Part shown: positions 6,624-53,380 of the stretch, piece after piece
Numbering within the stretch: the stretch's first letter is position 1
How the letters are laid out: the number at the start of each line of letters is the position of its first letter
From: Candidatus Kapaibacterium sp.
Lineage (GTDB): Bacteria > Bacteroidota > Ignavibacteria > Kapaibacteriales > JAEUSM01
Assembly: GCA_016788785.1 (NCBI GenBank)
Contig: JAEUSM010000013.1
Coordinates: 56,771 to 120,770 of the forward strand
Reading direction: 5' to 3'
DNA: 64,000 nucleotides
Made by a program: the position numbers and the translations under genes
Notes under the pieces: generated by a model
What the model saw: the letters and a program-made list of their open reading frames with translations, nothing else
Told to the model about the DNA's origin: nothing
Database searches by the model: none

Positions 6624-7205
6624 TCAAAATGTTTGTATATTTCTTATAATTGTTTGATTATTTTTGGTCATAATCAAATAATAATTTCTATATTTAATGT
6701 TTTGGATATTAATGCTTAACTTATTTTCTCCTTGATGAATAAATGCATCACCAAGTTTAATACAATTTTTTTCTAACAAATGTAATAAATAAAAACTTGC
6801 GTTACTTTCAACTTTACTAGTACATTCAACTTCAAGTATATTAGTAATTTCATTGAAATTAACTGACAAAATTGTGTTCGAAGAATTATTTATGCTTTTT
6901 AGATGTAATGGTGATTTATTTGTCCAAGTATATTTATCTACCGAAAAAAGCGAACTTCCATCTAAAAACGAAGCATCAATTTGAATAGACTGTTCAATTG
7001 TACCATGTAAAGATAATTTTCCATCTTTTTTTGATAATTTCCATCTTTCAAAACCAAGTTTATTGTATTTTTCTCCATTTAATAATTCAAATTCAAACTG
7101 CTTAAAATTTTTAGTTAAAGAACTTTGAGATTGAATAGTATTTTGTGCCTGAACTATTAATGCAGAAAAAATACAGCAAAAAACAAATGTTAAAGTAGTT
7201 TTCAT
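6624..7205 (-). CDS. secreted hypothetical protein
   Basis: The 193-aa protein begins with an N-terminal signal peptide 'MKTTLTFVFCCIFSALIVQAQ'. It lies between the two Cys-rich paralogue genes in the same orientation with short gaps. Confidence 0.55.
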   Translation of the reverse strand: MKTTLTFVFCCIFSALIVQAQNTIQSQSSLTKNFKQFEFELLNGEKYNKLGFERWKLSKKDGKLSLHGTIEQSIQIDASFLDGSSLFSVDKYTWTNKSPLHLKSINNSSNTILSVNFNEITNILEVECTSKVESNASFYLLHLLEKNCIKLGDAFIHQGENKLSINIQNIKYRNYYLIMTKNNQTIIRNIQTF

Positions 7206-13924: not shown

Positions 13925-15898
13925 TTACTTCCCTTTCTCCAACCAAAATGTGTTCATTGTTCCTTTTCCTTTAATGGAAATTTCTCCACGTGGAATGAGT
14001 GAAAATTCTTGGTGTGATTCGATGGATTTTGCGAATTGTTCACTGATGTGGATGCGACCGGCCTCTGAGTTTGATTCCATTCGTGAGGCTACATTTACTG
14101 CATCGCCCCATAGGTCATAGGTGTATTTGTTTTTGCCAATGATACCTGCAACGACTTCACCAGTGTGAATACCGATGCGAATTTCGATGTTGTTCATATT
14201 CTTTATCCATTCAGTAGCACCCAAATCTGATGGAATATTGACTACAAAATCTTTCATAGTTTCGAGAAGTTGCAGCGCAGCAAGTGCGGTTGCTTTTTGG
14301 TGTTCTTTGAGCGGAGTAGTCACATTCGCTACAGCCAAATACCCATCACCAATGGTTTTTATTTTTTCTAAACCAAAGGTTTCCACCACTTCATCTGCTT
14401 TTTGGAAAATTGCATCGAGTAAGAAGACAAGTTGTTTTGGTGGTGCAATGGATGCGAGTGTTGTAAACCCAACCAAATCCATAAAAAGTACAGAAGCAGT
14501 TTCAAAGTGGTCGGCAATAGGATTTTCACCCTTTACCAAACGATCTGTTACAGAATCAGGAAGTATATTTCGAAGGATACTTTCTCGCCCTAATAATTTT
14601 CCTCGTTCTTCAGCTATTTTAATTTCTTGTTCCGCTAATTTACGTTGGAGGTGAAAATTATCTGCTTGTTTTTTTGCTTCGATAGTTTGGATTTCTTTTT
14701 CTAAGGAAACGAATTTTTTGTGATATTCTAAAGATTCTTCAAATCTCATTTCATTTTGTCGTAACGTATGAATATGTTCATATGCATCTTTAATTATATC
14801 TTTTGCACCGATTTCTTCTGCAAGTAGTAGCGACTTTTGCAAATATTCTTCTGCTTTTTTTGTATCATAGTACGCTGATTCTTTTGTTGAGTATACACTT
14901 CCGATATTTCCGAGATTTTTTGCAATAGTATTTTTTCTCCCAATTACTTGGGAGATTTGTAAAGCTTTTGAGTAAAATTCCAAGGCTTGTGAGTCATCAG
15001 AAAGTTCCTTGTATACATTACCAATATTTCCAAGATTTGTAGCAATACCATCATTGTTTCTACTTTCTTCATTGATGTGTAAAGCTTTTGAATAATACTC
15101 TAACGCTTTGGGGTAGTCTGAAAGTTTTTTGTAAATAACTCCAATATTACCAAGGTTAGATGCAATACCATTTTTGTTTCCAATTTCTTTATTTATATGT
15201 AAAGTTTGATGAAAATACTCTAAGGCTTTTTGGTAATCAGAAAGATTTGCGTAAACAGTCCCAATATTACCAAGCGCATTTGCTTGAAATTGCTTATGTC
15301 CTATTTCTTCTGTGATTAATAATGCCTTTCCATAGAACTCTAATGCTTTCTGATAGTCAGAAAGTTCCTTGAAAACATTACCAATATTCACCAAATTTCC
15401 ACTAATTTCACCTTTATTTCCAATTTCTTCATTAATAAGTAGTGCTTTTGAATAAAACTCTAATGCATTTGGATATTCTGATAGATACCATTTAACACTC
15501 CCAATATTCCCAAAGTTTCTAGCAATTCCATTTTTGTTGCCAATTTCTTCAAAAATTTTTAACGCTTTTGAAAAATACTCTAAAGCTTTAGGGTAGTCTG
15601 AAAGAATCTGGTAAACTATACCAATATTCCCAAGATTATTTGCAATTTCACCTTTGTTTCCTCTTTTTTCATAGATGTGTAGTGATTTTTCATAATATTC
15701 TATTGCTTTGAAACAGTCTGAAAGATAACTGTATATAGCCCCAAGATAACTACAGACCTTTGCAAGTGAATTAGGGTCTTCTTGGATTGCTTTATTCTCT
15801 ATGAGTTCTTCAGCAAATGATTTTGCTTCTTGATTTTGTGATTTATTCACCAAATCTTTTAATTTTTCAATTGAGGCATTTATATCTTCGGGAGTCAT
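13925..15898 (-). CDS. TPR-repeat class III adenylate cyclase (paralogue 2)
   Basis: The 657-aa protein has about eight 40-aa TPR-like units ('NLGNIG.VY..LSDYPKALEYYSKAL.I.EEIGNK.GIA.'), then a coiled-coil and a cyclase catalytic domain ('VLFMDLVGFT', 'IKTIGDGYLAV', 'RIGIHTGEVVAGIIGKNKYTYDLWGDAVNVASRMES'). It is roughly 88% identical at the DNA level to 50935..52974 in the C-terminal half. Confidence 0.85.
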   Translation of the reverse strand: MTPEDINASIEKLKDLVNKSQNQEAKSFAEELIENKAIQEDPNSLAKVCSYLGAIYSYLSDCFKAIEYYEKSLHIYEKRGNKGEIANNLGNIGIVYQILSDYPKALEYFSKALKIFEEIGNKNGIARNFGNIGSVKWYLSEYPNALEFYSKALLINEEIGNKGEISGNLVNIGNVFKELSDYQKALEFYGKALLITEEIGHKQFQANALGNIGTVYANLSDYQKALEYFHQTLHINKEIGNKNGIASNLGNIGVIYKKLSDYPKALEYYSKALHINEESRNNDGIATNLGNIGNVYKELSDDSQALEFYSKALQISQVIGRKNTIAKNLGNIGSVYSTKESAYYDTKKAEEYLQKSLLLAEEIGAKDIIKDAYEHIHTLRQNEMRFEESLEYHKKFVSLEKEIQTIEAKKQADNFHLQRKLAEQEIKIAEERGKLLGRESILRNILPDSVTDRLVKGENPIADHFETASVLFMDLVGFTTLASIAPPKQLVFLLDAIFQKADEVVETFGLEKIKTIGDGYLAVANVTTPLKEHQKATALAALQLLETMKDFVVNIPSDLGATEWIKNMNNIEIRIGIHTGEVVAGIIGKNKYTYDLWGDAVNVASRMESNSEAGRIHISEQFAKSIESHQEFSLIPRGEISIKGKGTMNTFWLEKGK

Positions 15899-15929
15899 AG
15901 TTTTGTTGGAAGGTTGTATTGGTTTTTTG

Positions 15930-16245
15930 TCGTACGAATATACGAAAATAAGGGCATTCAGCCACTATCTAAAGATAGTGGAAATTCAAAACATTAGAAC
16001 ATGTACCCCCTCTCCCCGTACCCTCTCCCCAAAGGGGCGAGGGAGTTATCGTGTTTTTTGTAGTGACGCACAATTTGCATCTCTGAAGAAACCACCCCGA
16101 CCTTCGGTCACCCTTCCAAAGGAGGGGAATAGACCAACAACCCACAATTTCCAACATAGGGCTTACACTCTATGCAGTGATAGTACGCCCCTTCAGGGCT
16201 TGACCTCTCTGATTTTTGAGACGCCCATATAGGGCGTCTCTACGA
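15930..16245. repeat. GC-rich mosaic hairpin array 4, in the divergent intergenic region between adenylate cyclase 2 and nnr
   Basis: Module B 'gccactatctaaagatagtgg' is at 15961-15981 and module A (reverse complement) at 16005-16045. A degenerate module C is at 16058-16090, followed by 'ccttccaaaggaggggaa' and module G 'gccccttcagggcttgacc' at 16194-16214. The module C palindrome 'gagacgcccatatagggcgtctc' sits at 16217-16241. The first ~130 bp are collinear with array 7 (52950-53100). Confidence 0.8.
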
Positions 16246-31322: not shown

Positions 31323-32678
31323 ATGGAAGAATTTGTAAGTTTTTTGTTTTCCGTAGGTGGAATTACCTTTGTTGGATTTTTTTTCTTACTTATTTTCATT
31401 AAAAAGTTATTGATTATTTGCCATCCAAATGAAATTGTCATTTTATCTGGAAGGAAAAGATCTTTACCTGATGGTAGTATAGTTGGGTACCGTATCATTC
31501 GTGGTGGCAGAGCATTGCGTATCCCTATCATAGAAAAAGCTGCTCGAATGTCGTTGGAAGTGATTCCAATCGAATTGCACGTTTCGAATTGTTATTCAAA
31601 GGGTGGTATTCCTTTGACTGTCAACGCTATTGCAAACATTAAAATTGACTCCAAAGAGCCGACCTTAGGTAATTCCGTTGAACGATTTTTGGGTATGAAA
31701 CGTGAAGAAATCTTACAAATTGCCAAAGATACTTTAGAAGGAAATTTACGTGGTGTTTTAGCTTCTCTTACTCCCGAAGAGGTGAATGAGGATCGACTCA
31801 AATTTGCTCATACCCTTATTGATGAGGCAGAAGACGATTTGAAACAATTGGGTCTACAACTTGATACGTTAAAAATCCAAAATGTTGTTGATGAAGCAGG
31901 ATATTTGGACTCTATCGGTCGGAGAAAAACTGCTGAAGTATTAGCTCAAGCTCGTACAGCTGAGGCGGAACGTCAGTCTGAAGCAGAACGTGCTGAGGCA
32001 GTTTCTCGTCAAGAGGCAGAAGTTGCAAAAGCAAAATCTGAACTTGCTATCAAAAACGCACAAATTGATAAAGATCGTGAAATACGTGTCAATCAAACCC
32101 TTGCTCAACAACAAATTGAGATAGAAAACAACAATCTTCGTGTGAAAAAAGCGGAATTAGAGAAAATTTCCATCATCAAAGAAAATGAAGCTCAAATTGC
32201 CGGTGAAATTACGAAAGTAAAATACGAACAAGAAATGGAACAAGAACGTATTGCACTTCAACAACGTCGATTGATGGCTGATGTTATCGAACCTGCTCGT
32301 GCGAAAAAAGAGGCAACAGAATTAGAAGCAAAAGCTCAAGCAGCATTGATTTTGGAAAGTGGAAATGCGAATTTGGAAATCTTTAAACGAACTACTGAGT
32401 TATTCCAAAAAGCTGGATCCGATGCAGAACGCATTATGATTTTGAATATGTTTCCGAAAATTTTGGAACAATTAACTTCAGTTGTGCAAGATGTGAATAT
32501 AGATAGAATTTCTGTGATAGATAATGGCGGTCAAGGAAGTGATGGAAGTGGACTTTCAAAAGTCATTAACCAATTGCCATCTGCTGTTGTGAATTTCGGT
32601 GAAGTTGTCAAAAACGCCACTGGAATTGACATTTTTAAACAACTTCAGGATTCAAAGACTCCTGATACTAAGGAATAA
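31323..32678 (+). CDS. flotillin-like SPFH/band-7 protein (FloT/YqiK-type)
   Basis: An N-terminal TM segment is followed by the SPFH domain ('PNEIVILSGRK...RIIRGGRALRIPIIEKAARMSLEVIPIELHV') and a long Ala/Glu-rich coiled coil ('AEAERQSEAERAEAVSRQEAEVAKAKSELAIKNAQID'). Confidence 0.85.
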   Translation: MEEFVSFLFSVGGITFVGFFFLLIFIKKLLIICHPNEIVILSGRKRSLPDGSIVGYRIIRGGRALRIPIIEKAARMSLEVIPIELHVSNCYSKGGIPLTVNAIANIKIDSKEPTLGNSVERFLGMKREEILQIAKDTLEGNLRGVLASLTPEEVNEDRLKFAHTLIDEAEDDLKQLGLQLDTLKIQNVVDEAGYLDSIGRRKTAEVLAQARTAEAERQSEAERAEAVSRQEAEVAKAKSELAIKNAQIDKDREIRVNQTLAQQQIEIENNNLRVKKAELEKISIIKENEAQIAGEITKVKYEQEMEQERIALQQRRLMADVIEPARAKKEATELEAKAQAALILESGNANLEIFKRTTELFQKAGSDAERIMILNMFPKILEQLTSVVQDVNIDRISVIDNGGQGSDGSGLSKVINQLPSAVVNFGEVVKNATGIDIFKQLQDSKTPDTKE

Positions 32679-32737: not shown

Positions 32738-32768
32738 GGGGCGAAAGAAATTTCGCCCCTTTTTTTTG
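32738..32768 (+). terminator. intrinsic terminator (module F hairpin GGGGCGAAA-GAAA-TTTCGCCCC followed by a T8 run)
   Basis: The sequence 'ggggcgaaagaaatttcgcccctttttttt' lies 60 nt after the flotillin stop. The identical element recurs at 34690. Confidence 0.8.
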
Positions 32769-33024
32769 TGTTCGGTCTTTCACGATGGGTTAAAACCCAT
32801 CGCTACAAAAGGAAGCCCCTTCAGGGCTTGACCGGAAAACAGTAAAGACAGTGTCAGAAGATAAGTTCCCCGCTTGAGGGGTGCCACCGGTCACTGAGCG
32901 TAGTCGAAGTGTGGCGGGGTGGAATCTGAAGAAAATCTTCCTCTCCCCTTTGAGGGAGAGGGATGGGGTTAGGGGGTATTCGGAATAAAACGGGCAACCG
33001 TAAATGTTGCCCGTACTTTTTTTG
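32738..33024. repeat. GC-rich mosaic hairpin array 5
   Basis: Terminator module F is followed by the hairpin 'gatgggttaaaacccatc' (32783-32800) and module G 'gccccttcagggcttgacc' (32813-32834). Module E 'ccccgcttgagggg' is at 32869-32882 and module D (reverse complement) at 32882-32925. Module A 'cctctcccctttgagggagagggatggggttaggggg' is at 32938-32975, and the terminator-like 'acgggcaaccgtaaatgttgcccgt' plus a T7 run is at 32990-33024. Confidence 0.8.
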
Positions 33025-33116
33025 TTAAAAAGATTCCAACACATCGTAAAAGTCACCTATTTCATTTGATATTTTTGAATTTTAATTTTTTTTTCCTATA
33101 TTAGAAGTTATTAATT

Positions 33117-34661
33117 GTGGTCCATCAAAATAAGGAGAAAATCATGAAATACTTCTTTCTTTTATTATGTGCAACATCGTTATCCATTGCACAAGGAATA
33201 AATCAAAAACCTCCGTTTCTATGGGAAAACATATACACCGAAGGAATAATGAGAAGAGGAACTTTTAGGTTCTTTCATCCATTTGACCAACAATCTGTTT
33301 TAGTTATTAGTGAGCAATTAACTGATACTTCTTTTTCGCTTAGATTTTTTCAAAAGTATAATATACTTTCTGGCGAAATTGAGTGGACAAAACCCGGAGA
33401 AGTTGAAGGAAAGCCATTAGACATTCCAATCGCCCCAACTTTTTATTATCAACCGACAAAAGTTGACAATAAAATTTTGATTTCCTCATTAGCTAAACCT
33501 GCAGGTGATCTTGGCTCTACTTTTAGCTTTAGAAGGCAATTTTCTATTGATTCCGATGGAAACACTAAGTTTGAGAGGCTTTATGAAAACAACAGAGAGA
33601 TATTTAAGTCAAAACATCTTAAAGTTGTTGACCAGAATGAGTATATTTATCTTTCGGAGCTTATAAGTTCTGAACAAAATTTTTCAGATAGTACTCTTTT
33701 TAATTACGAGAAAGATGGTATAATTTCTTCTTACCCATTGAAACGCTTTTCTATGATGCATAGTTCACAATGGAATTTGTCAAATGCATGGAAAAGAGCT
33801 GATGGAAAAATTGATTTTATATTAGCGTCTTACAATGAAGATACTAATTGTATTTCATTTAGAACTCTTGATGTAGAAAAGGAAACAATATCAGATGTTA
33901 GTATTATGGGAGAAGAACTTGGTTTAACACCTGATGCATTTCTGACAGTGAGAGATTCTAAGAAAATTGACCACTATTATTATGTTGTTGTTGATGTAGG
34001 TTACTATTACGCTCCTGATAATATACTTTTAAAATTAGACCAAAATGGTAATGTGCTCAAACAAACTGGTTTTAGTGGTTACTCATCTACATGGGGTATG
34101 GAAAAAGGTCCAAATAACTCTATCATCTTGTATGGAGGTACATTTATACCAAATGAAAATCCTAACACCAAAACTAACCAATGGATTGCTCAATTTGATA
34201 CCGAATTGAATAAAATGAATGAGTTTATTTGGGGTACAAACGAAGTTGACATTACAACAGTTGCTACTTATTTTGACGGTGTAGGGTTACTTACCGGTGG
34301 TTTTTATAATAAAAACGATAAAAATTATACATGTACACCTCAAATTGGTCTCATCCCTGAATCTGTGTTTTTGGATGTGTCTTCTGTTGCTGAAAAAAAA
34401 TCAGAAACACTTACAATGCAAATTGTAGAAGATGCTTCTGCAAATTCCTCTTTAGTAGTGAATTCTAAACATCAGCAAACAGTTACTATTAATTTACTTG
34501 ATGCTAATGGAAGATTGGTATCTGTTGTTTCAACAGGAATTCTTTCAGAAGGTGAAAACCGATTTACCTTACCAACATCACTCTCGAATGGAATGTATCT
34601 GGTGAGTTGTGAGCAAAATGGTACTATACTTAGCTCTGAAAAATTCATTATCAAAAAATAG
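33117..34661 (+). CDS. secreted protein with T9SS C-terminal sorting domain, unknown function
   Basis: It has a signal peptide ('MKYFFLLLCATSLSIAQG'). The C-terminal ~90 aa ('...VVNSKHQQTVTINLLDANGRLVSVVSTGILSEGENRFTLPTSLSNGMYLVSCEQNGTILSSEKFIIKK') resemble the Por secretion tail. An ATG at 33144 is an alternative start. Confidence 0.6.
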   Translation: MVHQNKEKIMKYFFLLLCATSLSIAQGINQKPPFLWENIYTEGIMRRGTFRFFHPFDQQSVLVISEQLTDTSFSLRFFQKYNILSGEIEWTKPGEVEGKPLDIPIAPTFYYQPTKVDNKILISSLAKPAGDLGSTFSFRRQFSIDSDGNTKFERLYENNREIFKSKHLKVVDQNEYIYLSELISSEQNFSDSTLFNYEKDGIISSYPLKRFSMMHSSQWNLSNAWKRADGKIDFILASYNEDTNCISFRTLDVEKETISDVSIMGEELGLTPDAFLTVRDSKKIDHYYYVVVDVGYYYAPDNILLKLDQNGNVLKQTGFSGYSSTWGMEKGPNNSIILYGGTFIPNENPNTKTNQWIAQFDTELNKMNEFIWGTNEVDITTVATYFDGVGLLTGGFYNKNDKNYTCTPQIGLIPESVFLDVSSVAEKKSETLTMQIVEDASANSSLVVNSKHQQTVTINLLDANGRLVSVVSTGILSEGENRFTLPTSLSNGMYLVSCEQNGTILSSEKFIIKK

Positions 34662-34689
34662 TTTTTTTTCTAATCAGTGTCATATCTTA

Positions 34690-34720
34690 GGGGCGAAAGA
34701 AATTTCGCCCCTTTTTTTTA
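34690..34720 (+). terminator. intrinsic terminator (second copy of module F)
   Basis: The sequence 'ggggcgaaagaaatttcgcccctttttttt' begins 29 nt after the stop of 33117..34661. Confidence 0.8.
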
Positions 34721-35005
34721 TATTACCCCTCACCCCAGCCCTCTCCCTCAAAGGGAGAGGGAGTTTACTAATAACATTCTCTAATATTTCAAAATATAGG
34801 TTGTTCCCTCGCCCCATTGGGGAGAGGGTTAGGGAGAGGGGGTTTTTCTTCATAAATGGGCGTAAGCAATACGCCCCTACAATACCAATAAACGATAAGT
34901 TCCCCTCTTGAGGGGTGTCACCGGTCACTGATCGTAGTCGAAGTGTGGCGGGGTGGAATCGTCATCGAAACGTGTAGAGACAGGGCATGCCCTGTCTCTA
35001 CAAAA
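34690..35005. repeat. GC-rich mosaic hairpin array 6
   Basis: Module F is followed by module A-prime (34726-34765) and module A (34806-34845). The hairpin 'gggcgtaagcaatacgccc' is at 34858-34877, module E 'cccctcttgagggg' at 34902-34915 and module D (reverse complement) at 34914-34958. A perfect 30-bp palindrome 'tgtagagacagggcatgccctgtctctaca' occupies 34973-35002. Confidence 0.8.
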
Positions 35006-35030
35006 CCAAACGAAAGTTAGTAGGCTTTTT

Positions 35031-35393
35031 TTATGATTTGGAAAGCATTTGTAATTCAATTTGTTGTGCTTTTTTCAATTTAGAAATGACTAAATTGTAC
35101 GAGTTATCAATAATTTCTCGTAAGAATGCATCAGAAAGACATTCCTCCAATGGTATAGTAGCCCAATGTTGTTTATTCATATGATAACCCGGTTTTACGC
35201 ATGGAAATTCACTTTGTAATTCGGCATTACGTTCTGGTTCTATTTTCACATTCATCGAAACGGCATCCGGAACATCAACAAGTAAAAACATTTTTCCCAT
35301 TACTTTGAAAACGAGTGTATCCTCTCCAAAAGGGAATTCTGCTACAACCCCATTTTTTTGACTGCAGATTGCCTCAAGTTCTTGAAACGTCAT
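35031..35393 (-). CDS. MmcQ/YjbR-family DNA-binding protein
   Basis: The 120-aa N-terminus 'MTFQELEAICSQKNGVVAEFPFGEDTLVFKVMGKMFLLV' matches the YjbR/MmcQ family pattern. Confidence 0.7.
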   Translation of the reverse strand: MTFQELEAICSQKNGVVAEFPFGEDTLVFKVMGKMFLLVDVPDAVSMNVKIEPERNAELQSEFPCVKPGYHMNKQHWATIPLEECLSDAFLREIIDNSYNLVISKLKKAQQIELQMLSKS

Positions 35394-50934: not shown

Positions 50935-52974
50935 TTACTTCCCCTTTTCCAACCAAAAGGTATTCATTGTTCCTTTGCCTTTTATGGAAATTTCTCCTCT
51001 GGGTATGAGTGAGAATTCTGGGTATGATTCGATTGATTTTGCAAATTGTTCGCTGATGTGGATACGACCAGCTTCTGAGTTAGATTCCATACGTGAGGCT
51101 ACGTTTACTGCATCTCCCCAGAGGTCATAGGTGTATTTGTTTTTGCCGATGATACCTGCAACGACTTCACCTGTGTGGATTCCAATGCGAATTTCGATAT
51201 CGTTCATATCCTTTATCCAATTGGTATCACCCAAATCTGATGGAATATTGACGACAAAGTCTCGCATTGTTATGAGAAGTTGGAGTGCAGCTTGGGCAGT
51301 TGCTTTTTGGTGATTTTCGAGGGGAGTTGTTACATTGCCTACTGCCAAATACCCATCACCAATGGTTTTGATTTTTTCTAAACCGAATGTTTCAACCACT
51401 TCATCCGCTTTTTGGAAGATAGCGTCAAGAAGATAAACAATTTGCTTTGGTGGTGCAATCGAGGCAAGTGACGTAAACCCAACCAAATCCATAAAAAGAA
51501 CAGAAGCAGTTTCAAAGTGGTCGGCAATAGGATTTTCGCCCTTTACTAAGCGATCAGTTACAGAATCAGGAAGTATATTTCGAAGAATACTTTCACGTTC
51601 TTCGTATCTTGCTCTTTCAACAGCTATTTGTTTTTCACGTTCAGCTGTTTTACGTTCATTGTCAAATCGATCTGCTTGTTTTTTTGCTTCGATGGATTGA
51701 ATTTCTTTTTCGAGTGCTATAGATTTAGTTTGAAATTCTAAAGCTTCTTTATAATGTTCTTCGTTTAGTCTAAGCTTATGTAATTGTTCATAAGCTTCTT
51801 TTCTTACAACTTTTGCACCTATTTCCTCAGCTAAAACTAACGATTTTTGAAGATACACTTCTGCTTTTTTTACATCATAGTATGTTGATTCTTTGGTTGC
51901 ATAAACAGACCCAATATTCCCAAGGTTACTTGCAATACCGACTTTATTCCCAATTTCTTCATTGATGTGAAATGCTTTTGAGTAATACTCTATAGCTTTG
52001 GGGTAGTCCGAAAGACTCTTGTAAACAATCCCAATATTCCCAAGGTTTATTGCAATCCCAACTTTGTTTCCAATTTCTTCATTGATATGTAATGCTTTTG
52101 TATAATACTCTAATGCTTTGGGGTAGTCTGAAAGATTCCAGTAAACAATCCCAATATTCATAAGGTTAGTTGCAATTCCAACTTTATTCCCAATTTCTTC
52201 AAAAATAGGTAATGCTTTTGAGTAATACTCTAATGCTTTTGGGTAGTCCGATAGATTAGAATAAACATTCCCAATACTCACAAGGTTACTTACAATTCCT
52301 AATTTGTTTCCAATTTCTTCAAAAATAAGTAATGCTTTTGAATAATACTCTAATGCTTTGGGGTAGTCCGAAAGATCTGAGTAAACAAGCCCAATATTCC
52401 CAAGGTTAGCTGCATTACCATATTTACTTCCAATTTCTTCACCGATGTGTAATGCTTTTGAGTAATACTCTAATGCTTTGGGGTAGTCCGAAAGATAATT
52501 ATAAACATTCCCAATATTCCCAAGGTTACTTGCAATACCAACCTTGTTTCCAATTTCTTCTAATATGAGTAATGCTTTTGAATAATACTCTAATGCTTTG
52601 GGGTAGTCCGAAAGATCTGAGTAAACAAGCCCAATATTCCCAAGGACACTAGCAATACCTCTTTTGTTTTCAATTTCTTCAGAGATAAGCAATGACTTTG
52701 AAAGATACTCTAATGCTTTGGGGTAGTCCGAAAGATTCCAGTAAACAATCCCAAGTGAATTATAGACCTCTGCAAGAGATTTGGCATCGTCTTGGATTGC
52801 TTGTTGTTCCAAGAGTTCGTAAGCAAATACCTTTGCTTCTTGATTTTGAGAAGTTCTCCAAAGATTATCTAATTTTTCTTTTGCTTGTTGTATTTCTTCG
52901 GGTGTCATTACGGTTTTGGAAGGTTGCATTGGATTTTGTCGTACGAATATACAAAAATAACGACATTCAGCCAC
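50935..52974 (-). CDS. TPR-repeat class III adenylate cyclase (paralogue 3)
   Basis: The 679-aa protein has a catalytic domain almost identical to that of 13925..15898 ('ILPDSVTDRLVKGENPIADHFETASVLFMDLVGFT...IKTIGDGYLAV...RIGIHTGEVVAGIIGKNKYTYDLWGDAVNVASRMES'). It contains about seven near-identical 40-aa TPR units. Confidence 0.85.
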   Translation of the reverse strand: MAECRYFCIFVRQNPMQPSKTVMTPEEIQQAKEKLDNLWRTSQNQEAKVFAYELLEQQAIQDDAKSLAEVYNSLGIVYWNLSDYPKALEYLSKSLLISEEIENKRGIASVLGNIGLVYSDLSDYPKALEYYSKALLILEEIGNKVGIASNLGNIGNVYNYLSDYPKALEYYSKALHIGEEIGSKYGNAANLGNIGLVYSDLSDYPKALEYYSKALLIFEEIGNKLGIVSNLVSIGNVYSNLSDYPKALEYYSKALPIFEEIGNKVGIATNLMNIGIVYWNLSDYPKALEYYTKALHINEEIGNKVGIAINLGNIGIVYKSLSDYPKAIEYYSKAFHINEEIGNKVGIASNLGNIGSVYATKESTYYDVKKAEVYLQKSLVLAEEIGAKVVRKEAYEQLHKLRLNEEHYKEALEFQTKSIALEKEIQSIEAKKQADRFDNERKTAEREKQIAVERARYEERESILRNILPDSVTDRLVKGENPIADHFETASVLFMDLVGFTSLASIAPPKQIVYLLDAIFQKADEVVETFGLEKIKTIGDGYLAVGNVTTPLENHQKATAQAALQLLITMRDFVVNIPSDLGDTNWIKDMNDIEIRIGIHTGEVVAGIIGKNKYTYDLWGDAVNVASRMESNSEAGRIHISEQFAKSIESYPEFSLIPRGEISIKGKGTMNTFWLEKGK
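51895..52765 (-). repeat. about seven tandem copies of a 120-bp (40-codon) repeat inside the adenylate cyclase 3 coding sequence
   Basis: The 120-bp unit 'caatttcttc...aatgcttttgagtaatactctaatgctttggggtagtccgaaagat...gtaaacaa.cccaatattcccaaggtta.ttgcaat.cc.a.tttgtttc' recurs with roughly 85-95% identity. Each copy encodes one 'NLGNIG.VY.(N/D)LSDYPKALEYYSKAL' unit. Confidence 0.85.
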
Positions 52975-53300
52975 TATCTAAAGATAGTGGCACTTCGTAT
53001 ATGGAAATTTGTCCCCCCTCTCCCCGTACCCTCTCCCCAAAGGGGCGAGGGAGTTGTTTTGTTCTTGTAGAGACGCACGGACGTGCGTCTCTGAAGATTC
53101 CACCCCGCCATTTAATGGCACCCCTCAAGAGGGGAACCCAAAGATATCTCCCTCTCCCCTTGAGGGAGAGGGTTGGGGTGAGGGGTCATTCTGAATCAAT
53201 GGGCAGACTCGTAGGTCTGCCCCTATAAAATTTCAAAAAAGTTCGACCTCGCCACATTACGACTACGCTCAGTGACCATGGCAGTCCTTAAGAGGGGAAC
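52950..53300. repeat. GC-rich mosaic hairpin array 7
   Basis: Module B 'gccactatctaaagatagtggc' is at 52970-52991 and module A (reverse complement) at 53013-53053. Module C 'gagacgcacggacgtgcgtctc' is at 53070-53091 and the hairpin 'gccatttaatggc' at 53107-53119. Module E 'cccctcaagagggg' is at 53122-53135 and module A-prime (reverse complement) at 53146-53190. The hairpin 'gggcagactcgtaggtctgccc' is at 53200-53222, module D at 53246-53283 and module E 'ccttaagagggg' at 53286-53297. Confidence 0.8.
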
Positions 53301-53345
53301 CAACATTTTTACAATCATTTGATGACTTATGTTGTCGAAATTGAC

Positions 53346-53380
53346 CAAAAAAAAACCTACTGTTTTCAGTAGGTTTTTTC
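53346..53380. terminator. bidirectional intrinsic terminator downstream of the SDR gene
   Basis: The sequence 'aaaaaaaaacctactgttttcagtaggttttttc' is a stem flanked by an A9 run and a T6 run. Confidence 0.7.

Follow-up and report, generated by a model that had tools for sequence, protein, structure and literature searches.

A predicted intrinsic terminator of likely REP-type origin in two copies around a T9SS-tail gene of a Candidatus Kapaibacterium contig

Repetitive extragenic palindromes (REPs) carry a GT(A/G)G head, assemble into the mosaics known as bacterial interspersed mosaic elements (BIMEs), are linked to the REP-associated tyrosine transposases (RAYTs) and have been associated with transcription termination (PMC2817692, PMC3733652). 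CGTC-tagged repeats were listed in Chlorobi and Bacteroidetes in a 2013 survey (PMC3733652), and in a 2026 preprint an E. coli REP is described as a terminator that depends in part on Rho and as an mRNA stabiliser (bioRxiv 10.64898/2026.03.23.713779). In Neisseria and the Pasteurellaceae, uptake sequences give their stems to a large share of intrinsic terminators (Kingsford 2007, PMC1852404), and REP finders such as RepRanger leave out hairpins whose tails are T-rich, classing them as Rho-independent terminators (PMC12306157). Here we describe a 64,000-nt stretch of DNA from Candidatus Kapaibacterium sp. (assembly GCA_016788785.1, contig JAEUSM010000013.1, positions 56,771 to 120,770 of the forward strand; hereafter the window) in which a hairpin followed by a T tract, termed F, occurs twice, once behind a flotillin gene and once behind a gene whose product carries a C-terminal sorting domain of the type IX secretion system (T9SS).

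Pneumococcal BOX, RUP and SPRITE and the Correia elements of Neisseria are short modular intergenic repeats that interrupt short-read assemblies and may act as promoters or terminators; they are defined units of 100–150 nt or more with terminal inverted repeats. The modules of the window differ from these in measuring 15–70 nt and in being freely shuffled, and F itself has neither terminal inverted repeats nor target-site duplications. The likeness to REPs and BIMEs is closer, as F is a short, GC-rich extragenic palindrome that has a GTAG head in orthologues and lies in mosaic arrays near gene 3' ends, and concerted evolution is seen in F too. It differs from them in having a T7–8 tract in place of the CTAC side, in the two copies seen where tens to hundreds are typical, in the lack of a RAYT among the open reading frames (ORFs) of the window, in that regular alternating orientation was not evident there, and in its host, a member of the Kapabacteria (Bacteroidota/Chlorobi group). 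Uptake sequences likewise supply a repeated sequence as terminator stem, with an orientation bias that puts the T-rich side downstream, but they are words of 9–12 nt, present ∼1000 or more times per genome and selected via transformation, whereas F is a whole 30-nt hairpin and tail at two sites, without evidence of an uptake role. Integron attC sites differ in that no integrase or recombinase was found in neighbouring ORFs and that just one candidate cassette lies at F. Finally, unlike an ordinary intrinsic terminator, F occurs as an exact duplicate, is set in repeat arrays and, in relatives, has a head of the REP type. Since REP finders class T-tailed hairpins as terminators, F falls between categories.

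Anatomy and copy number of the two hairpins

The two copies and the genes around them are as follows.

31323–32678, + strand: SPFH/Band 7 (flotillin) gene (Pfam Band_7, E=6e-21)
32738–32767, + strand: F1, stem-loop at 32738–32759 and T8 at 32760–32767; predicted terminator of the flotillin gene
33144–34661, + strand: T9SS-tail gene, with C-terminal sorting domain (Por_Secre_tail, 25.8 bits, slightly below Pfam's cutoff of 27)
34690–34719, + strand: F2, identical hairpin and T8; predicted terminator of the T9SS-tail gene
35031–35393, − strand: yjbR-family gene (Pfam YjbR, E=6e-26), convergent with the T9SS-tail gene

An earlier note, made from the sequence of the window, had reported an identical module at 32738 and 34690, downstream of the plus-strand stop codons of both genes and followed each time by further repeat modules. 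All of this was borne out. The 22-mer GGGGCGAAAGAAATTTCGCCCC followed by T8 was found twice on the + strand (32738–32759 and 34690–34711), and these were still its only matches in the window when up to three mismatches were allowed; none of 100 dinucleotide shuffles gave one. The identical unit measures 30 nt, or 35 nt at 94% identity (repeat family D14), and the left flanks are unrelated. Independent Logan assemblies reproduced F1 with its flank (L121) and F2 with both flanks (L155, L156), so the repeat is no assembly artefact. The distance from stop codon to hairpin is 59 nt for F1 and 28 nt for F2, and each copy heads an array (A and B, below) whose GC-rich modules are found again in other parts of the window.

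A terminator scan found in F a 9–10-bp stem that includes six G-C pairs and is capped by a GAAA tetraloop, with a U8 tract abutting it. The RNA folds lie well below shuffled controls (F1, -18.1 kcal/mol, z=-3.4; F2, -17.6 kcal/mol, z=-4.5). The element is a 22-nt palindrome, perfect outside its loop, and is intergenic, the next gene beyond it being either 377 nt off or convergent. On the opposite strand the hairpin has no following U tract, and F is thus unidirectional. At ∼10 other gene ends of the window a unique hairpin and T run stand 21–42 nt past the stop, and several of these sites, where genes converge, are bidirectional. It is evident from them that the organism makes use of canonical intrinsic terminators. 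F matches these unique sites in free energy and in its spacing from the stop, as well as in stem length, loop and U tract. The proposal that F is a canonical intrinsic terminator thus agrees with its anatomy, place and orientation, and the prediction that both copies are intrinsic (Rho-independent) terminators is well supported at the level of sequence.

A covariance model was built from nine F copies (see below) and run on the window with filters off. It returned two matches in the 64 kb, F1 at 57.3 bits and F2 at 57.2 bits, and the next match on the + strand scored 18 bits. Across ∼200 kb of related and metagenome loci the model found no F sites beyond the known ones. One exact T-tailed match, the F2 orthologue, came from a metagenome that includes a close relative (175- and 117-kb contigs), and in all related DNA examined F-like hairpins occurred in two gene contexts only, behind flotillin and behind the T9SS-tail gene. 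F is therefore a two-site, low-copy family in the DNA sampled (the window and related loci). The high copy number of REPs was not found there, nor were the features of a miniature inverted-repeat transposable element, as the repeated unit is just a 30–35-nt hairpin with its tail and the flanks are unrelated. Neither target-site duplications nor terminal inverted repeats beyond the hairpin were detected at the window copies.

The flotillin and T9SS-tail sites in relatives

The flotillin locus was compared in relatives with 89–98% protein identity (loci outside the window carry numbers with the prefix L), and two states were found. In L124–126 (89%) and L127/128 (97%) there is neither F nor an array; yjbR directly follows flotillin in relatives without the insert, and the spacer of 57–60 nt between the two genes contains a single bidirectional terminator, AAAAGCCTAC..GTAGGCTTTTTTT, common to flotillin and the convergent yjbR (11380–11420 in L124–L128; for L128, ∼7045–7075). 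In L122, L123, L129/130 and L131, an F-like hairpin occupies the same position and in every case heads a module array. The hairpins of this second state, and the trace of the first that persists in the window, are listed here.

L129: GTAGGGGCGAAACATCTTTCGCCCC followed by T7
L131: loop TATC
L122: loop CATA, one C lost
L123: GGGACGAAAGAAATTTCGCCCC followed by T7
Window, 35020–35032, no strand assigned: GTAGGCTTTTTTT, what is left of the ancestral bidirectional terminator, namely its right arm with the T run (by comparison with L124–128)

Of the old terminator only the right arm is left in array-bearing genomes, whose final flotillin codons differ as well; the whole 3' region was thus replaced.

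L122 and L124–131 have no T9SS-tail gene between flotillin and yjbR, and the presence of this gene varies among relatives whose flotillins are 94–98% identical. Its ORF opens at GTG 33117, the called start being ATG 33144, and its product of 505 aa is on record in two Logan assemblies. Five homologues were found in the protein collection (43–99% identity), and an F-like hairpin with T7–8 stands behind every homologue that has a readable 3' flank.

L139: 53% amino acid identity, same neighbourhood, F-like hairpin at the 3' side
L158/159: 81% identity, F-like hairpin at the 3' side
L157: 43% identity, different neighbourhood, next to an asparaginase gene, F-like hairpin at the 3' side

A cysteine-rich ORF of ∼260 aa without a Pfam match was also observed in L139 (reverse strand, first ∼850 nt) and L157 (2–796). 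It lies 10–12 nt upstream of the T9SS-tail gene, apparently in one operon with it. The window and L158 lack this ORF and have a repeat array and an AT-rich region in front of the gene instead.

Alignment of the nine F copies, from at least seven genomes, showed that the stem and the T tract are the only conserved block. Base pairing is retained in 97.5% of alignment cells, against 51–65% when partner columns were slid, and the outermost stem pair changes from G-C to A-U in two of the nine sequences. The loop varies freely (GAAA, CATC, TATC, CATA, GATT). A tract of T7–8 follows the stem in 7/9 copies, that of L122 being shorter (T5–6), and all nine stand in terminator orientation behind flotillin or the T9SS-tail gene. 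An RTRT motif past the T run is common to both sites in relatives.

While the left flanks of F group by gene, the loops and right flanks do not. Three loop variants were found at both sites.

GAAA: F1 of the window and L123; F2 of the window
TATC: F1 of L131; F2 of L139
CATC: F1 of L129; F2 of L158

Right flanks of type R1 (GTGTKCGGTCTTTCACGATGGG...), R2 (GTGTTTGTTTACCCCTCAGTCC...) and R3 (...CCCCTCACCCC...) each occur behind both genes. The T9SS flank of L157 is collinear over ∼180 nt with the flotillin flank of L129, and in L122, which is without the T9SS-tail gene, the 36 nt behind the flotillin F are those found behind the T9SS F in L158. That the same 4-nt loops should have arisen at two loci three times by independent mutation is implausible and points to repeated recombination or gene conversion. 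From the shared loop variants and right flanks we infer such exchange between F copies, which would also have rendered the two copies of the window lineage identical over 30 nt. At least one loss or gain of the T9SS-tail gene appears, judging by the L122 junction, to have its end points in F.

The possibility that every genome without the T9SS-tail gene is a deletion product of F1 and F2 was considered and rejected for L129–131, which have an F1-type right flank and an array that mixes modules of A and B; the deletion reading was kept for L122 versus L158 alone. The F1-type flank and single mixed array of L129–131 suggest that the arrays in general, beyond F, are prone to recombination.

Origin of the hairpin and competing explanations

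The F stem (9+9 nt) is the core of a 28-nt palindrome, GTAGGGGCGAAA-(AATT/AATC/GATT)-TTTCGCCCCTAC, that was found, among the matches listed, at at least 120 genome loci (L001–L120) in unrelated contexts. According to the record titles of those matches, its hosts include Binatia, Desulfobacterota, Cyanobacteria, Chloroflexota, Planctomycetota, Omnitrophota, Bacteroidota and Gammaproteobacteria. A further 21 IMG/VR viral loci (L160–L180) carry it, several of them in 2–3 copies. No recurrent neighbour gene was seen across the 141 loci, and the flanks are unrelated. GTA and TAC tags were both present in 60/130 palindrome copies among the matches listed and a T-rich tail in 2/130. A metagenome scan for the stem with a T6 tail gave 23 loci (GTA head in 10/23), L139 being the sole relative, and these T6-tailed hairpins lie 16–100 nt past a same-strand ORF in nearly all cases.

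A GTAG head precedes F at the orthologous sites of L122, L129–131 and L139, and array B of the window contains a further palindrome of the GTAGGGGCG... kind. Together these point to F as a likely T-tailed offshoot of this REP-like family, its probable ancestor by sequence being the GTAG-tagged palindrome GTAGGGGCGAAA-N4-TTTCGCCCC. Membership of the REP class is partial, as F is a palindrome and has the GTAG head in orthologues only, and the two copies in 64 kb fall short of the high copy number of that class. Several tags of the window modules (GTAG, CGTC) are those described for REP super-families (PMC3733652). Neither F nor the 28-nt palindrome was found in the text and supplements of that survey (Di Nocera 2013, PMC3733652), and a literature search with the literal F sequence returned primers and unrelated matches only. 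A RAYT linked to the 28-nt palindrome was sought, and the one candidate, a weak Y1_Tnp ORF in L063 (21.5 bits), was set aside as it is flanked by a different REP. As a separate observation, tandem heptamers (e.g. CGTAATT, CAATTGT/AATTGAC, GGATGTT) adjoin the GGGGCGAAA palindrome in L059, L108 and L138/L140/L141.

We favour the explanation, with a probability of roughly 0.65, that F is a pair of functional terminators, REP-derived and low in copy number, that are vertically inherited at two genes and homogenised by recombination or gene conversion. Transcription of flotillin and of the T9SS-tail gene would enter the GC-rich GAAA hairpin and U8, where RNA polymerase would release the transcript; this mechanism is taken from established knowledge of intrinsic termination, for which a hairpin and a U tract suffice. 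The T tract would stand where the CTAC tail of a GTAG-tagged palindrome would be, and F would lie nearest the gene, at the head of BIME-like mosaic arrays. Inheritance at both sites would be vertical, with the copies kept alike by recombination or gene conversion, and homology between F1 and F2 would probably mediate gain or loss of the T9SS-tail gene between them. Any spread of F would occur with blocks of the mosaic arrays via recombination, and not as an autonomous ready-made terminator.

Several observations weigh against this explanation. The window copies themselves lack the GTAG head, having TATG and TTAG instead. The stem GGGGCGAAA/TTTCGCCCC is also found in plainly unrelated A-run/T-run terminators, e.g. 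at enterobacterial loci, so the F stem may have a convergent origin. No transposase or RAYT (Y1_Tnp) domain was detected among the 33 ORFs of the window; a RAYT is a single-copy gene and could sit elsewhere in the genome. The deletion at F is drawn from one junction, that of L122 compared with L158, and the contig of L158 stops 45 nt past the T run. Lastly, L123 and L139 were assumed to represent one genome, given that they share a metagenome and that each contig breaks off between flotillin and the T9SS gene. A comparison of the L123 tail with the L139 head for overlap matched nothing but poly-T junk. Poly-G/poly-T junk of this kind was observed at the Joint Genome Institute (JGI) contig ends (L123, 11960–12040; start of L139, reverse strand) and is probably an assembly artefact at a repeat-rich gap that separates the flotillin contig from the T9SS contig.

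The earlier note had gone further and suggested that part of the repeat family spreads as ready-made terminators. On this reading F would be a mobile module, dispersed through the genome, of which copies arrive at new gene ends. The same 30–40-nt element does stand behind two unrelated genes, and its kinship with the repeats is supported by the GTAG head of the orthologues and the palindrome at 34857–34880. Moreover, the composite of F and its next modules recurs at the flotillin flank (window, L129) and at the T9SS flank of L157 in a different neighbourhood, and the parent palindrome is scattered through many phyla, viral contigs and unrelated contexts. Against such dispersal, the covariance model found two copies and no third in 64 kb, the related DNA gave two gene contexts, the metagenome with the close relative gave one exact T-tailed match, the window copies have neither target-site duplications nor terminal inverted repeats beyond the hairpin, and no transposase or RAYT was found among the window ORFs. 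The reading is therefore partly supported, by the two unrelated genes and the repeat kinship, but the DNA sampled gave no evidence of wide dispersal or active spread, which we consider unlikely. It is improbable that F acts mainly as a REP, that is, as a hairpin protecting mRNA 3' ends or as a binding site for a protein or RAYT, with an incidental T run and release that is Rho-dependent or does not occur. The GTAG head of the orthologues and the identical stem within a GTAG..CTAC palindrome family would suit this function, as would the stabilisation of mRNA and partly Rho-dependent termination ascribed to E. coli REPs (PMC2817692; bioRxiv 10.64898/2026.03.23.713779). However, a T tract abuts the stem on the coding strand in nine copies (T7–8 in 7/9; T5–6 in L122), a T tail is present in just 2/130 of the general palindrome copies among the matches listed, and a hairpin with a U tract is enough for intrinsic termination.

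F could instead be chiefly a recombination site, whose direct copies bracket a cassette (array and T9SS-tail gene) inserted or excised like those of integron attC sites. The presence or absence of the gene among relatives with 94–98% identical flotillin, the L122 junction of flotillin left flank, F and right flank of the L158 T9SS F, and the loop variants and right flanks common to both sites are all compatible with this. Yet L129–131 are without the gene and have an F1-type flank and a mixed A/B array, and are thus not simple F1 by F2 products; a 67-nt repeat pair (D7, 96% identical) brackets the gene too; no integrase or recombinase domain was found in the ORFs neighbouring F; and ordinary homologous recombination between 30-nt repeats accounts for the data, so that a dedicated site appears quite improbable. 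Chance or convergent resemblance of two unrelated terminators is effectively refuted: the stem is a generically good one and occurs in unrelated bacteria also, but the identity is 30/30 including loop and T8, 0/100 shuffles matched, and in relatives the GTAG head and, past the T run, the RTRT motif are found at both sites. For the 28-nt palindrome, a rather unlikely conjecture is that a single hairpin travels horizontally across phyla and phage-like contigs, that gain of a T tract would repeatedly make it a terminator, and that in Kapabacteria such terminators would serve as crossover points swapping 3'-flank arrays and a surface-protein gene. The cross-phylum palindrome is a more curious by-product than the F pair.

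With F as a pair of REP-derived terminators, the locus would clearly illustrate, at the level of sequence and in a lineage other than the Proteobacteria, the use of a REP-type palindrome for intrinsic termination. When a terminator is duplicated, its copies can offer short stretches of homology through which they homogenise one another, and the intervening gene may be deleted or inserted. In concept this adds modestly to what is known, since the recruitment of repeats as terminators has been documented before, for REP/BIME and for uptake sequences. For annotation, the kinship of F with REPs would escape tools that use the T tail to tell REPs and terminators apart.

Repeat arrays and other features of the window

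The window has a GC content of 35%, and Rfam at gathering thresholds gave zero matches across it. The flotillin product is 100% identical to an NCBI-named flotillin from a Candidatus Kapabacteria metagenome-assembled genome. Seven intergenic arrays of recurring GC-rich hairpin modules were found in the window, including GTAG- and CGTC-tagged palindromes; GTAGAGAC..GTCTCTAC palindromes are among their modules, and CCCTCTCCCC/GGGGAGAGGG hairpins occur at 9 window sites. The two arrays headed by F are composed as follows.

32768–33022, no strand assigned: array A, a mosaic of GC-rich hairpin modules after F1
32783–32802: CGATGGGTTAAAACCCATCG, array A
32815–32827: GCCCCTTCAGGGC, array A
32860–32926: D7 copy 1, a 67-nt module, array A
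32939–32962: CCCTCTCCCC/GGGGAGAGGG hairpin, array A
32990–33022, + strand: module K hairpin ACGGGCAAC..GTTGCCCGT, then AC and T7 (fold -15.6 kcal/mol; terminator scan)
34720–35008, no strand assigned: array B, after F2
34726–34763 and 34806–34842: two CCCTC.CCCC/GGGGAGAGGG-type modules, array B
34857–34880: GTAG-tagged palindrome GGGCGTAAGCAATACGCCCCTAC, another GTAGGGGCG... palindrome, array B
34894–34960: D7 copy 2, array B
34974–35001: GTAG/CGTC-tagged palindrome GTAGAGACAGGGCATGCCCTGTCTCTAC, array B

The modules of array A were found reordered in L129, L131 and L157. Clustered REP-type palindromes are interleaved with other short motifs in an order that varies between strains, as in BIMEs, whereas regular spacing and alternating orientation were not found, the order and orientation of the modules being irregular. 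Module K (ACGGGCAACCGTAAATGTTGCCCGT) is a second terminator-like site, just upstream of the promoter region of the T9SS-tail gene. In L129 this module has no T run, and the comparison with the T7 of the window suggests that array hairpins turn terminator-like when a T tract abuts them.

The D7 pair is the second direct repeat that brackets the T9SS-tail gene. Short-read assemblies L121 and L155 break inside D7, a caution for annotation in that the repeat arrays interrupt such assemblies exactly here. The internal hairpin of D7 is swapped for shorter variants in relatives.

Arrays may tend to sit just beyond terminators. A third instance of the order gene, terminator, array was observed with the unique terminator AAAACCTACTGAAAACAGTAGGTTTTTTTTT at 53346–53379 and an array at 52975–53340. 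Elsewhere in the window, two paralogous genes with TPR and adenylate/guanylate cyclase domains lie 37 kb apart (13925–15898 and 50935–52974, both on the − strand), each with internal 120-nt tandem repeats (14891–15833 and 51824–52843, respectively). Repeat-module arrays at 15925–16058 and 52934–53066, which are 91–92% identical, precede the two cyclase paralogues.

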